Below are positions 16,377-32,743 of a DNA stretch of 64,000 nt, piece after piece. This DNA comes from a phage. A program made the translations under genes and the position numbers. The DNA lies in the sequence record NC_094493.1; one strand, 5' to 3'. Position 1 is the first letter of the stretch; each line of letters opens with the position of its first letter. The notes under the pieces were generated by a model. That model searched no databases and was not told the origin of the DNA. It worked only from the letters and a program-made list of their open reading frames with translations.

Positions 16377-16835
16377 TTAGAAGTTTGTTTTTACACGTCC
16401 CTTTTCATCTACCTCATTGTTAGCTAAAAGCGTTACAAAGTCTGTGAAACGGACATGAAGAACTCTTTTCTTGTCAAGGTATCCTAAAGCCACCCCTGAA
16501 AAATTTAGCATCAAGGGGGCTAAAGAAGCTCTAGCACTGAAATGCTGTTGTTCTACTCTTCCTACACCCTTAGTGTAGGATGGGTTAAGATTGTAAGTTC
16601 TGAATCCCAGTTTTGTTGGAGCTTTAGAATTAAAAACAACTTTATAGCGTTTCTTACTCAACTTATGCTCCAGGATAAGAATTCCCTTATCACCCTTGAT
16701 AAGTTGAAAATCTGTAAAGTGCTCTTTTAAGACGAAAGGTAGTGCCAGTCCCATCGCCTGCCCTCTTTGTACCGCTGTCTCACCAAAAGCTTTCGCATCA
16801 GTGAGTTCTTTGGTCAAGTCTATGCTTTTGATCAT
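16377..16835 (-). CDS. hypothetical protein, possible PD-(D/E)xK nuclease
   Basis: 152 aa; candidate D-x9-ExK (IKGDKGILILEHK); 5' end overlaps the 3' end of the upstream methyltransferase gene by about 38 nt. Confidence 0.3.
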   Translation of the reverse strand: MIKSIDLTKELTDAKAFGETAVQRGQAMGLALPFVLKEHFTDFQLIKGDKGILILEHKLSKKRYKVVFNSKAPTKLGFRTYNLNPSYTKGVGRVEQQHFSARASLAPLMLNFSGVALGYLDKKRVLHVRFTDFVTLLANNEVDEKGRVKTNF

Positions 16836-26879: not shown

Positions 26880-27230
26880 TCAGTAGATGTTTTGTTTAAT
26901 CTCTATTCCAAACTTTTTAAACGAGTCAGCTGCAAGCATGAATTTACGAGCCGCTGATGGATTAGAAGTATGTACGAAAATCTTCACGTTGTCAACCACG
27001 GGAGGCTTACCGAATACAAATTTTTCCTCCAACATGGATAGGCAATCGTATCCTTCGAATACTTCTCCTAGGTCGTTGTCCATATGCCACTCAGAAACGC
27101 GTCTGTAGAGCTTTCCCTTATCGTTAATAAAATCCATAAACTCGGAGGAATTCTTCAGCCAAACAGCGTCTGGGAGCCCGTAATTTGACGGATCTCTTAA
27201 GTCATCTAGCCACACAATCAACTTCTTCAT
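26880..27230 (-). CDS. small alpha/beta protein with receiver/flavodoxin-like acidic motifs
   Basis: 116 aa; LIVWLDDLRDP, HMDNDLGE, IFVHTSNP; ATGA-coupled to rnlA and 9 nt upstream of the Sir2 gene. Confidence 0.35.
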   Translation of the reverse strand: MKKLIVWLDDLRDPSNYGLPDAVWLKNSSEFMDFINDKGKLYRRVSEWHMDNDLGEVFEGYDCLSMLEEKFVFGKPPVVDNVKIFVHTSNPSAARKFMLAADSFKKFGIEIKQNIY

Positions 27231-28162
27231 TGCATATAGTTCTCGTTGTGGAAATAGTAATCAAGTATCTCACGGCGTTCCTGCTCCAGGAGGCAGTTCC
27301 ACACATCCTCTGTGTAATTGCTACGAATGAAGTTTACCATGCCGTAAAACTCTTCGTCAACACGTTTAAAGATATCATCATCCCAAATCTTCCAAGCTTT
27401 ACCCCTCATTACGGCCTTCCGTGCCAGATAGTATGGAGACTTGATCTTCAGCTGCAGATCATAAGGGTAGTAAGGCTTACGAATCATATACCCTTCACCT
27501 CTTGTTTCTGCAGCTAATTCTTTTGCATAGCTGAACGGAATTTCACGCACAGTGTGAGGACGTTTTGCACCAAGGTATTTGGCAATCCCATCTAAAGCTG
27601 CTTCTGGTAGCATTATTCCAGAATCATTATATCTGCAACCTATCAAATATGCGCCATGATCTTCCTGAACAATATGCGGATCTGAAGGGTGACAAATTTC
27701 AAACATGAATGTCATGTTTTCATTGCCCATAACCTTCTTGATAAGATCTAAATTACCACATTGCTCTTGGATGGTTTCCTTTGCAAGGTTACAATATGGA
27801 GAATCAAGAGACCCGGTTGTTGAGAACAATAGTTCACCTTTATGAGATGATACCACACCGAGGAATCCGTTCTTTTTCTCTACCGCAGTAACAAGTTTAC
27901 TGTCCGGTAGGTTGGTGGAGTTTTCTCCTAAGTTGAATACTTTTGTGAAAGGCCATGCCACAACATTCCCCTCATTGCCAACAACAATACCTCGGCACTC
28001 CAGTAAACGCGGAGACAAATGCCACAGATTGTTGTAGAATACTTTTCTGGCATATTTATAGATCTTTAATCCAAGATCTGGATAATACCGACTGGTTACA
28101 AGACCTTTGTCTACTAGGTCATCTGCATTAAAATACTTCATCATACGTTCCTCATTTGTCAT
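27227..28162 (-). CDS. rnlA: RNA ligase 1 (T4 RnlA-like)
   Basis: 311 aa; RLLECRGIVV...WPFTKVFNLGEN parallels T4 Rnl1 ALECRGIMF...FFNLNEN; motif I lysine in VEKKNG. Confidence 0.8.
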   Translation of the reverse strand: MTNEERMMKYFNADDLVDKGLVTSRYYPDLGLKIYKYARKVFYNNLWHLSPRLLECRGIVVGNEGNVVAWPFTKVFNLGENSTNLPDSKLVTAVEKKNGFLGVVSSHKGELLFSTTGSLDSPYCNLAKETIQEQCGNLDLIKKVMGNENMTFMFEICHPSDPHIVQEDHGAYLIGCRYNDSGIMLPEAALDGIAKYLGAKRPHTVREIPFSYAKELAAETRGEGYMIRKPYYPYDLQLKIKSPYYLARKAVMRGKAWKIWDDDIFKRVDEEFYGMVNFIRSNYTEDVWNCLLEQERREILDYYFHNENYMQ

Positions 28163-28205
28163 TTTGTCAGTCTATCCTGCCACACAAATAACCTAGTGTC
28201 AACAC

Positions 28206-28234
28206 TTGAAATTAACAAAACAGTTAGGTATACT
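28206..28234 (+). promoter_or_regulatory. sigma70-type promoter
   Basis: TTGAAA-17nt-TATACT upstream of kinase gene. Confidence 0.45.
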
Positions 28235-28262
28235 ATCATTAAAATTAAAACGGAGGGTTGCT

Positions 28263-28673
28263 ATGTCTAAAATGCTATATATCGTGCGTGGTCTGCCAGG
28301 GTCTGGCAAATCAACACTGGCAAATGCGCTATCTTTAGAAGGTCTGTATCCACATTTTGAGAACGACATGTTCTGGTATGACGATGACGGCAATTACAAC
28401 TGGGATGCAAGTAAAGTAACACTCGCAGCAAAATGGTGCAAAGATAACGTAGAAGATATGATGCGTATGGGATACGACCGTATCGTGGTAAGTAATACGT
28501 TTACAAAAGAAAAACATGTGCAGGAATATGTTGACATGGCAATCAGTCACGGGTATAGTTATACCGTGATCGTGGTTGAAAACCGCCACGGTAATAAAAG
28601 CATTCATGATGTTCCAGACAAGGTTGTGGATCGTATGGAACGCCAGCTTAAAAACTGCATTAAACTTAAATGA
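28263..28673 (+). CDS. P-loop kinase, polynucleotide 5'-kinase-like
   Basis: 136 aa from ATG after GGAGGG; Walker A RGLPGSGKST as in T4 Pnk kinase domain GCPGSGKST. Confidence 0.65.
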   Translation: MSKMLYIVRGLPGSGKSTLANALSLEGLYPHFENDMFWYDDDGNYNWDASKVTLAAKWCKDNVEDMMRMGYDRIVVSNTFTKEKHVQEYVDMAISHGYSYTVIVVENRHGNKSIHDVPDKVVDRMERQLKNCIKLK

Positions 28674-28680
28674 GGAATGT

Positions 28681-29235
28681 ATGAAATACTTTGTAACAAG
28701 CGACACACACTTTCTCCACCAGCGGGTCATGGAGTTTGATTCATGTCAAAAACACAGATCTCAGTATGATCACAATCTTGACAGTATGAATGCGGGAATC
28801 ATCACCAAGTGGAACTCTGTTGTGTCACCTGCAGACACTGTGTTTCACTTGGGAGATATTGCGTGCACTAATGATAAGAATATCAACAAATTGCTCCCAG
28901 ATGTTCTAAATATGTTGAACGGACATATTATTCTTGTTCGTGGTAACCATGACACAAGGACGACTGTCAGAATTATGAAAGAGTTCGGTCATGAGGTTGT
29001 AGATTATTACGAGCTTCGCCACAACAAGAATTTGATCTGTATGAGCCATTACCAGTTTGCAAAGTGGAACAGAAAGCCTCACGGATCAGTCCAACTGTTC
29101 GGTCATGCTCACGGAACCACACAGCAGTTGTTTGGCAGGCAGTTTGATGTCGGTTGGGATGTGTGGGGGAGACTCTTACCATTAGAAGAGGCATACCGTA
29201 TTGCAATGAGTCTTGCTATTGACAGCGGGGAGTAA
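28681..29235 (+). CDS. calcineurin-like metallophosphatase
   Basis: 184 aa from ATG 7 nt after kinase stop with GAGGA RBS; motifs SDTHF, GDIA, GNHD, GHAH. Confidence 0.75.
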   Translation: MKYFVTSDTHFLHQRVMEFDSCQKHRSQYDHNLDSMNAGIITKWNSVVSPADTVFHLGDIACTNDKNINKLLPDVLNMLNGHIILVRGNHDTRTTVRIMKEFGHEVVDYYELRHNKNLICMSHYQFAKWNRKPHGSVQLFGHAHGTTQQLFGRQFDVGWDVWGRLLPLEEAYRIAMSLAIDSGE

Positions 29236-29282: not shown

Positions 29283-29633
29283 ATGAAAGATGGGGATAAG
29301 CTGCTATATCTTAAAGTCCCCCTTGAAATACTGTCTATGTCAAAAGTTTTGAATGACACAACTGGGGAGGTTGTTGTTCTTGACTTATATGACAAGATCG
29401 TATACTGCTACCTGCACAACTGGTATAAGCTTGGAGGAAATTCACGCTTCACACCCAGCACAAGGAAAATTGCAGCAGATGTTGGGATAAAGAAAACAAA
29501 AGCAGCAGCGTGCGTTAAAACTTTAGAATGTGCAGGAGTGGTTGAAATATCCACACAAGGGAGAGGTAAAAGATGTACATTTTCCAAAGTTTTGCCACCA
29601 GAAGAGGTTATTCGAATGTCAACAACTGGTTAG
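29283..29633 (+). CDS. hypothetical protein, possible HTH DNA-binding
   Basis: 116 aa; helix-turn-helix-like TRKIAADVGIKKTKAAACVKTL; immediately upstream of palindrome array. Confidence 0.3.
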   Translation: MKDGDKLLYLKVPLEILSMSKVLNDTTGEVVVLDLYDKIVYCYLHNWYKLGGNSRFTPSTRKIAADVGIKKTKAAACVKTLECAGVVEISTQGRGKRCTFSKVLPPEEVIRMSTTG

Positions 29634-29709
29634 ACCAGTAAAAACTTAAATATCTGTACTATAAGGATTCGTATGTTTTATGTTCGCTCTGGAACAGAGG
29701 TCAGTAACT

Positions 29710-29788
29710 GTCCGTGATACGGACACTACTGTCCGTCACGCGGACACATCTGCCCGTAATACGGACACTAACTGTCCGTGATACGGAC
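29710..29788. repeat. array of four 15-bp palindromes GTCCGT-N3/4-ACGGAC
   Basis: copies start near 29710, 29731, 29752, 29774 (21-22 bp spacing); followed by AT-rich tract with AGTAC...GTACT palindromes. Confidence 0.7.
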
Positions 29789-29929
29789 ACATAAAGAATA
29801 TAACTAAAATAACTAAATAATAAAAATAAAAGATCTAGTACTTATGGTACTAAGTACATATACTTAACTTATGTAGAATATACTAGATCCTAAGTACCAT
29901 GTTTTAAAATTATTACTTACTATAGGTAG

Positions 29930-30180
29930 TGTCGGCCCTTCATTGGCACTCGCCTACGAGGGGCGAGATGCCGGGCCTCCTTGGTGCACACAATAACAGA
30001 AGTGCATACATGCAGGTCTGTTAACATGTGTGGGAGCGAAGCGATAGCGCAGGCCAAAGGCCGAGCACTGATGTGGACCACCGACGAAAGCTTGCCAGCG
30101 CCGTAAGGAGTCGGTTGAGAGTCTCCCGCGCGAGCTTGGATGAAGTTTATGTGTGGAAACTGACAAGAAGGCCCCTAAAT
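29930..30180. ncRNA. candidate structured non-coding RNA (GC-rich island, strand undetermined)
   Basis: about 250 nt visibly GC-rich in AT-rich context, no credible ORF, local hairpins (ctcgcc/ggcgag; ccgac...gtcgg). Confidence 0.25.
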
Positions 30181-30292
30181 CGCTCCACAGCTATATAAAC
30201 TATACCAGGTAATGCAATCGCACCAGTTTGATAGAAAAGCTCGTTACAAAGTGATACAGTGAGTTTTTCTATAACTTGAAGAGGAGGCGGCT

Positions 30293-30871
30293 ATGGGTTC
30301 ACGCAAAGATGACCGTGAAAAGATTGCAAAACGTTATCAGAATGAAGAACAGATGGAGAAAACTTTCAAATGGAAGCCTGGTTTCCAGCGTAATCATTCT
30401 AACGCTCGTGATCGTAAGCATCCAGATAAGTGGCTAACACCGCCAAATGATGGCATGCAGGTTGGTGATGAGAAGGAGATGTCACCTGGAAAAGATGGCA
30501 ACTACATTCGCACTAAGGAAGCTGGTCCAAAGGATGACAGCTATCTTGTAGATAAGGTTCTTAATGGTATTGATGTAGATGTTGACACTGCACGAAACCT
30601 TTTTCTTGGTTGGTATCGTACAGGGTTTTTCGACATCAAGGCTATTCGTCGTGTTTGTGATATTAAAAAGTCTGCCTATGATGATGACTCCCTACATCGC
30701 ACTCTGAGACAATACTCAGAGAGATACGGTCATCCAGTTATCACTCTTGACGATATTAACGAAGTGATGTATCATGCAGAGGTTGTTGCAGGTAGATTCG
30801 GTGATGCATATCTAGATATCCTTTCTGCAAAGGATGAGGTAATGTTAAATAAGATTTACTATGAACGCTGA
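30293..30871 (+). CDS. hypothetical protein
   Basis: 192-aa ORF with GAGGAGG RBS; no motif recognised. Confidence 0.4.
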   Translation: MGSRKDDREKIAKRYQNEEQMEKTFKWKPGFQRNHSNARDRKHPDKWLTPPNDGMQVGDEKEMSPGKDGNYIRTKEAGPKDDSYLVDKVLNGIDVDVDTARNLFLGWYRTGFFDIKAIRRVCDIKKSAYDDDSLHRTLRQYSERYGHPVITLDDINEVMYHAEVVAGRFGDAYLDILSAKDEVMLNKIYYER

Positions 30872-32639: not shown

Positions 32640-32736
32640 GCTAGGTAAGCCCTTTGGCAAGGGCGAGGATTTTTAATCCTGAAAATAGACGAGGTAGTCG
32701 TTGAATACATAGGTGGTTCGATTCCATCACCTAGCA
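32640..32736 (+). tRNA. atypical tRNA-like gene (possible tRNA-Lys TTT variant, about 97 nt)
   Basis: acceptor gctaggt/acctagc, D-arm gccc...gggc, T-arm ggtgg-ttcgatt-ccatc; anticodon arm aggatttttaatcct ambiguous; about 30-nt extra arm; no CCA. Confidence 0.45.
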
Positions 32737-32743
32737 CCTTTTT

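Follow-up and report, generated by a model that had tools for sequence, protein, structure and literature searches.

Where does a phage of the rV5 type begin to copy its genome? The replication origin of the Vequintavirus (rV5) group, whose members are isolated widely and considered for use in biocontrol and therapy, has hitherto been undefined. We addressed the question at one locus of a phage sequence (record NC_094493.1), of which a stretch of 64,000 nucleotides, referred to below as the window, was analysed. The 3-kb region around this locus is 98–99% identical to more than 100 genomes of Vequintavirus (rV5-like) E. coli myophages, and by this identity the window belongs to a phage of that kind; its gene order agrees with that of annotated relatives. 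Here a gene for a 116-amino-acid (aa) winged-helix protein is followed by an array of four palindromes and then by an AT-rich tract. On balance, we consider that positions 29283–29920 probably constitute an iteron-type lytic replication origin module with a stand-alone initiator consisting of an N-terminal domain only. The observations behind this reading are a repeat array found nowhere else in the genome, an extreme AT tract, the homology and fold of the protein, and the recurrence of the module in other phages.

A phased palindrome array at a single locus

The initial annotation of this DNA had described four 15-bp palindromes spaced at two helical turns, and all four were found where it placed them (Table 1). 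Their palindromic character and regular spacing were borne out, while the dyad was corrected from 15 bp to 17 bp (7-N3-7), with the consensus TGTCCGT-NNN-ACGGACA and start-to-start distances of 21, 21 and 22 bp. The repeated unit is a 19-bp direct repeat, C-TGTCCGT-NNN-ACGGACA-C, and because its flanks are non-complementary all units lie in the same orientation while retaining the internal dyad. With up to two mismatches allowed, 0.09 ± 0.32 sites are expected by chance in the window; we observed five, four of them within 81 bp, and none of 100 shuffled sequences gave five. The sole further match in the window, at 16439, has two mismatches, and no additional site with fewer than three mismatches was present in a composite whole genome of ~136 kb, made up of the window and the remainder of phage phiWec191. 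A single target locus in ~136 kb favours an origin or a local operator over the target of a general regulator. No DnaA, IHF or Fis consensus was found in 29600–30300, such host factor sites not being obligatory for phage origins. A pattern scan of IMG/VR for the palindrome was uninformative, returning ~100 single chance matches, and three intergenic copies of TTGTCCGTGCCACGGACAAGG that fit the pattern in an unrelated high-GC IMG/VR phage (L099, 2303–3421) were dismissed as coincidence, there being no related protein nearby.

A scan of related genomes for conservation of the palindrome recovered the array in 15 of 15 relatives, with most of the variation in the three central base pairs and at the innermost position of the half-sites. 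The innermost pair of site 2 is C..G in the divergent Aya group and in L005–L009, and T..A in L004, such that the changes among isolates keep or restore the dyad; the C that breaks the dyad of site 3 is fixed in all 15 relatives. In an alignment of eight relatives the 25 bp immediately 5′ of site 1 were far more variable than the sites, and the 3′ third of the spacer that separates the array from the gene (~29683–29706) was the most variable part of the locus. The number of sites ranges from two in navn and three in JES2013 to six in O157 typing phage 14, most isolates having four, and among these viable isolates copy number always shifts by whole 21/22-bp units. Two Logan contigs and a GenBank assembly (MG065672) break at the array or inside it, which we attribute to heterogeneity in repeat copy number and not to physical genome ends.

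The adjoining AT-rich tract and palindrome block

The AT-rich tract that had been noted after the array is real and extreme, reaching 92.5% AT at 29791–29830 and 80% AT over ~29790–29920. No other segment of the window or of the composite genome is richer in AT when lengths of 40, 100 or 130 bp are compared; the same holds for 60 bp, a size that was run within the 64-kb window alone. Positions 29791–29831 of the + strand comprise 29 A, 9 T, 2 C and 1 G, corresponding to 93% AT and 71% A. The smaller features reported for this region were recovered as well, namely the tandem repeat listed in Table 1, AGTAC-ttatg-GTACT at 29837, and ATGGTACTAAG / CTAAGTACCAT at 29844 / 29890; to these we add a further inverted pair, GATCTAGTA / TACTAGATC, at 29832 and 29881.

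These palindromes fall within 29832–29900, a block that is almost invariant across 15 relatives. GTAC and CTAG are avoided genome-wide, with observed/expected ratios of 0.5 and 0.29, and this block holds the densest GTAC cluster of the window (four in 70 bp, where ~0.006 such clusters are expected by chance). It may represent a second protein-binding block or motif, or a promoter region. An AGGTACA repeat related to the GTAC motif is present in the junction region of a further subfamily, L014 and L015, described below. Three other candidate signals were rejected: GATC (Dam-site) enrichment as the sign of an origin, since both GATC and AGATCT are common genome-wide (ratios of 1.33 and 2.0); a T7-like promoter at TTACTATAGGTAG (29917), which lies in the part of the AT block that varies most among isolates; and a sigma-70 promoter in the AT block, where none scored at least 9/12 and where TGTAGAAT at 29872 resembles the −10 element of a strong KpS8 promoter and has no −35 element.

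A stand-alone homologue of an initiator DNA-binding domain

The small protein with a possible helix-turn-helix that the initial annotation had placed upstream of the array was confirmed as a winged helix-turn-helix protein, its gene ending 75 bp before site 1. A homologue is present in all 118 Vequintavirus records that include the region (tblastn against a phage collection), and the protein matches PHROG 12838, 'replication initiation protein' (E 2.5e-80). The best relative of solved structure is PDB 4RO3 (phmmer E 1.4e-6; 38% identity over 80 aa by BLASTP), the N-terminal domain of RepA from the Vibrio cholerae element PLE (PMC7145576). With an enlarged-family profile the match to 4RO3 reached E 4.9e-12, the next being a MarR protein at E 8e-4.

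An AlphaFold2 (AF2) model built from 22 sequences was of moderate confidence, with a predicted local distance difference test score (pLDDT) of 74.5 and a predicted TM-score (pTM) of 0.70; an earlier model from five near-identical sequences (pLDDT 46.9) was unusable. When the former was compared with solved structures using Foldseek, 4RO3 ranked top (E 4.9e-5, TM 0.62), and the six best matches of the model were 4ro3 (twice), 4pql (twice), 4pt7 and 5kbj. The N-terminal domains of the RepA_N initiators 4pql, 4pt7, 5kbj and 4pta aligned with the model over up to 107 columns, whereas generic repressors of the LexA, ArsR and MarR types aligned over ~65–75 columns, covering the winged-helix core only. 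The predicted fold comprises a winged helix and an N-terminal extension of the kind seen in the N-terminal domains of RepA_N proteins. Sequence and predicted fold agree in making the 116-aa protein homologous to the N-terminal domain with which PLE RepA binds iterons, here as a stand-alone protein.

It consists of this domain only, and because the C-terminal domain of RepA_N initiators is absent we describe it as a protein that works like such an initiator and not as a full member of the type. A downstream open reading frame (ORF) of 192 aa was considered as a split-off C-terminal domain and rejected, as it showed no similarity to the C-terminal extension found in the proteins of L014 and L015. 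Searches with the 116-aa protein by tblastn of the phage collection and by a word-indexed protein search returned Vequintavirus matches only. Exhaustive HMMER searching added a handful of weak matches, two other subfamilies being reached solely by profile search, and a search for related loci with the family alignment returned nothing.

Counterparts of the module in sister genera and metagenomes

A homologue of 105–114 aa (pairwise E 9e-6; DUF6945) lies at a divergent junction in Mydovirus KpS8, in Seunavirus GAP31 and in four relatives known from metagenomes. Outward from its start codon follow two 18–20-bp repeats 23 bp apart, mostly GTGCTCAAATTGAGCA-like, an AT tract of ~55 bp and two copies of AGATCT; the most divergent protein of this KpS8 type (P0029, from L129) is accompanied by quite different repeats, AGGTCCAAAATGAACCTTGG twice. 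A third subfamily, of 182–217 aa (L014 and L015), has an AT tract and then two repeats ending in AGGTACA, which are 22 bp apart in L015, and this subfamily alone carries a C-terminal extension. Some of its members (P0011, P0020 and P0021; 195–217 aa) have acidic ends, for example ...DEDPDAPF and ...YYDTGEPF, which resemble the C-terminal tips of single-stranded DNA-binding protein (SSB) that dock replisome partners.

A small homologous gene, phased repeats and an AT tract thus form a conserved module, the repeats changing in sequence as the protein does. Relative to the order of sites, AT tract and GATC motifs, the gene of the rV5 type points the opposite way from that of the KpS8 type, which argues that the conserved feature is the unit of sites plus AT tract and not a promoter–operator geometry. 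The initial annotation had placed the array at an early/late strand switch, which is wrong for the window: the genes to either side are both read from the + strand, and it is 1.5 kb upstream, at 28162/28206, that the divergent switch lies. Unlike in Vequintavirus, the module does sit at a strand switch in the sister genera.

Origin, operator or other element

The initial annotation had left two readings open, an origin or a multi-operator regulatory region, an interpretation that was partly supported. The first was strengthened by the RepA homology, the unique array, the genome's top-ranking AT tract and the recurring module. The locus has two features of an iteron origin, four helically spaced repeats and an AT-rich tract directly adjoining them; the adjacent reading frame, a candidate for the cognate initiator gene, encodes a homologue of an initiator's iteron-binding domain and no further domain. 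If it serves as one, dimers of the 116-aa protein would bind the four in-phase 17-bp dyads as iterons, and being on one helix face could assemble into one nucleoprotein complex, with the DNA bent or wrapped. The resulting strain would then open the adjoining A-rich tract, the least stable duplex of the genome. Helicase entry would rely on the phage's T7 gp4-like primase-helicase and family A polymerase, a role that we propose for the phage replisome because the 116-aa protein has no C-terminal recruitment domain. Site binding, oligomerisation, tract melting, helicase loading and the start of replication at this locus are all steps that we infer.

Several points count against an origin. The 116-aa protein had no match to Pfam RepA_N at E ≤ 1, and it falls slightly below the Pfam cut-offs of the families it resembles (DUF6945, 27.1 bits against a cut-off of 28; HTH_36, 24.5 bits against 25). 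Without a C-terminal domain it may simply bind and regulate, and arrays of phased dyads describe classical operators equally well. In the 43–99 kb region of ICP1, which includes its mapped theta origin at ~60 kb, the only family member found was gp88 (Odn), so such a protein is not needed by every relative of this replisome. The cumulative GC skew of the composite genome reaches its global minimum at 28221, 1.5 kb from the array, but transcription changes direction at exactly this point, and the minimum, being confounded with gene orientation, is not independent evidence; in the rV5 genome paper, base-skew analysis showed transcription switches only. Finally, phiWec191 contains, outside the window, an ORF-free region of 2.5 kb at a convergent junction (L018, 15066–17542), which is AT-rich in several places, carries ATAGTTGCCYTG four times, in both orientations, and has no Rfam match. 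This is probably the 'non-coding' box on the map of the rV5 paper and could be a second cis-acting region.

The alternative that survives best, which we judge unlikely though deserving of serious attention, is an operator or roadblock array in which a winged-helix regulator would bind the four dyads cooperatively. It could coexist with an origin, since iteron initiators commonly autoregulate. The array might block read-through from an early promoter at ~28206 into the tRNA, lysis and packaging genes, or might act on a promoter within the AT-rich block; autorepression would result in the sister genera, where the two sites lie between the AT tract and the start codon. Several observations fit such a function: the protein has weaker similarity to LexA, MarR, ArsR, GntR and CodY repressors, is mostly labelled 'putative transcriptional regulator' in GenBank and carries no domain besides the DNA-binding one, KpS8-type sites lie directly 5′ of the ribosome-binding site of the gene, and the array separates three genes that look early from a long non-coding leader. 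However, no sigma-70-like promoter scoring at least 9/12 was detected in 29634–30292, by a scan that is blind to phage-specific promoters, and the rV5 paper gives no promoter or terminator there. The sites are moreover 3′ of the gene in rV5 and 5′ of it in the KpS8 type, only their adjacency to the AT tract being conserved, and the closest characterised homologues, PLE RepA and ICP1 Odn, act on origin iterons and not on promoters.

It is very improbable that the array acts at the level of RNA, with the dyads forming 7-bp hairpins in the 3′ untranslated region of the 116-aa gene as terminators or as stabilisers of the mRNA 3′ end comparable to repetitive extragenic palindromic (REP) elements. 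The array does begin 75 nt past the stop codon on the coding strand, and its predicted single-strand fold (−25.1 kcal/mol) has a z-score of −6.3 relative to shuffled sequence. Against this, none of the hairpins is followed by a T-run, and the gap between the genes contained no terminator-like site; in 15 of 15 relatives site 3 has a C–A mismatch on the + strand, and site 2 gives a wobble pair on the + strand and a mismatch on the − strand, leaving neither strand consistently paired. Strict helical phasing at 21–22 bp would be meaningless for RNA, and the sites in sister genera are mainly direct repeats upstream of the gene.

Least probable of all is a packaging or other cis-acting site, pac-like or centromere-like, to which the small protein would bind. 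In its favour, repeat arrays with GATC motifs are known at some pac sites (e.g. P1 pac), the terminase large subunit gene lies ~4.4 kb downstream, and MG065672 and two Logan contigs have an end at the array or inside it. Against it, the homology of the protein is with an origin-binding domain rather than with small terminase subunits, repeat copy number accounts better for the contig breaks, and the sister-genus module lies far from the terminase gene, at an early divergent junction.

Genomic setting and the remainder of the intergenic gap

The array and tract lie in an ORF-free gap of 659 bp (29634–30292) that follows the 116-aa gene (Table 1). Beyond it come, in turn, the 192-aa reading frame of unknown function (30293–30871), a tRNA cluster, spanin genes and terminase. 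The RNA-repair-like gene set spans the divergent switch (27227–29235), and genes for Sir2 and a cREC_REC protein adjoin it.

Table 1. Coordinates of the features at the candidate origin locus and of its neighbours, as positions in the window.
Feature	Position	Strand	Remarks
Sir2, cREC_REC protein and Rnl1-type RNA ligase genes	left of 28162	−	
Rnl1-type RNA ligase	27227–28162	−	RNA-repair-like set
AAA_33 kinase-like protein, metallophosphoesterase and 116-aa protein genes	right of 28206	+	
AAA_33 kinase-like protein	28206–28673	+	RNA-repair-like set
Metallophosphoesterase	28681–29235	+	RNA-repair-like set
116-aa winged-helix protein gene, rV5 ORF79 homologue	29283–29633	+	Proposed origin-binding protein
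Spacer from stop codon of the 116-aa gene to site 1	29634–29708		75 bp
Site 1, TGTCCGTGATACGGACA	29709–29725		Perfect 7-N3-7 dyad
Site 2, TGTCCGTCACGCGGACA	29730–29746		Innermost pair T..G in the present phage
Site 3, TGCCCGTAATACGGACA	29751–29767		C at position 3 disrupts the dyad
Site 4, TGTCCGTGATACGGACA	29773–29789		Perfect dyad; abuts the AT tract
A-rich tract, proposed DNA-unwinding element	29790–29831	+	Tandem ATAACTAAA ×2 at 29800
Nested short palindromes, AT-rich block	29832–29900		4 GTAC, 2 CTAG, 2 GATC
GC-rich (51.5%) conserved stretch without ORFs, reaching the next gene	29929–30292	+	No 3-nt codon periodicity at variable sites

The conserved stretch at the end of the gap is predicted to be structured (minimum free energy z-score −2.9), and carries an 18-bp deletion in rV5 and Murica. 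Rfam gave no match at the gathering threshold over either the array or this stretch (best E 0.011, far below the gathering score), and a scan of IMG/VR for a 22-mer taken from the stretch found a single locus. It may be a leader, a non-coding RNA or part of the origin. Two strings from the gap recur in a Justusliebigvirus, phage muut, at a divergent junction (L013, 1100–1515) where TAGATCTAAAGTC stands beside an AT-rich palindrome and GCTCGTTACAGAG ahead of the first gene; their Vequintavirus counterparts are TAGATCTAAAGTCC in Aya and GCTCGTTACAAAG at 30239 of the window. No homologue of the 116-aa protein was detected near the muut junction.

Two further observations concern the records and genes of this group. 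Eighteen GenBank records (MG0656xx) titled 'Campylobacter phage', with C. jejuni given as host, are ~99% identical to the present E. coli Vequintavirus; they are probably mislabelled or contaminated. A tRNA-like gene at 32640–32738, amid six ordinary tRNAs, was left without an amino acid identity by ARAGORN, which called a four-base anticodon (atcc); it scores just 35.5 bits against the Rfam tRNA model and is annotated as tRNA-OTHER in GenBank relatives.

Implications

Iteron origins are textbook knowledge, and annotation pipelines already label the gene 'replication initiation protein'; what is new is a candidate origin for this phage group, a putative initiator reduced to a single domain, and the link to PLE RepA. 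The candidate measures 640 bp and comes with a named putative binding protein, and a mapped origin would be useful for phage engineering. The homology also ties the replicon of a satellite to a module of large lytic phages, and points to initiators made of a DNA-binding domain alone. A bolder proposal, which we put forward tentatively and think rather doubtful, is that rV5-like phages start replication with a minimal RepA_N-type initiator that has the iteron-binding N-terminal domain and no recruitment domain, the origin being opened by distortion alone and the T7 gp4-like helicase loading itself, and that the PLE replicon arose, by descent or by capture, from the origin module of these large lytic myophages. 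If true, this would explain the use that PLE makes of an ICP1-type replisome.

Comparison with known replication and regulatory systems

In layout, a close counterpart is the origin of phage lambda, where four dyad-symmetric iterons are bound by dimers of the winged-helix N-terminal domain of O and are followed by an AT-rich tract that unwinds. The rV5-type locus has nearly the same arrangement, a resemblance that does not imply family membership. In contrast to the rV5 type, the lambda origin lies inside the O gene, and the C-terminal domain of O recruits P–DnaB; the rV5 protein had no significant match to Phage_rep_O, for which the GAP31 homologue alone gave a weak one (E 0.017). The lambda operators OR and OL also consist of several 17-bp pseudo-palindromes, roughly two helical turns apart, to which dimers bind cooperatively. 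Unlike the present array, over which no promoter was detected, they overlap mapped promoters, and their repressor is of a different helix-turn-helix class.

By predicted fold, the RepA_N initiators of staphylococcal plasmids (pSK41 and pTZ2162; 4pql, 4pt7, 5kbj and 4pta) come next after PLE RepA, with TM 0.53–0.57 over up to 107 columns. Their domains are dimeric winged-helix binders of semi-palindromic iterons. They differ from the rV5 protein, which does not reach Pfam RepA_N at the threshold given above, in having a host-specific C-terminal domain and an origin that usually lies inside the rep gene.

ICP1 Odn (gp88) has a domain of the same DNA-binding family as the rV5 protein (pairwise E 7e-6; family profile E 4.3e-9), and reuses the DNA-binding domain of PLE RepA to cut the PLE origin (PMC8263062). 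Odn joins this domain to a T5orf172/GIY-YIG nuclease and turns it on a foreign origin, whereas the rV5 protein carries no nuclease domain and has its candidate sites in its own genome.

The closest parallel is PLE itself, whose origin contains semi-palindromic iterons; RepA binds them and, in cells infected by ICP1, drives replication with the machinery of that phage (Barth et al., PMC7145576). For PLE, binding and origin function are proven, whereas for the rV5-type locus both are proposed; PLE RepA has a C-terminal domain where the rV5 protein is confined to the N-terminal one, and PLE is a satellite with three iterons where the present genome is that of a helper-type lytic phage itself. The two share a homologous DNA-binding domain, the rV5 protein having PLE RepA as its best match by sequence, family profile and predicted fold. 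Both have a short array of repeats in one orientation, with internal inverted repeats, beside A/T-rich sequence, and the same-orientation direct repeats with an internal dyad that characterise RepA_N iterons (PMC7145576) are like the units described here. The replicon is in each case used with a phage replisome of the ICP1/rV5 type, ICP1 being among the closest relatives of the rV5 polymerase according to the rV5 genome paper, and natural duplications of whole units (42 bp) occur in both arrays.

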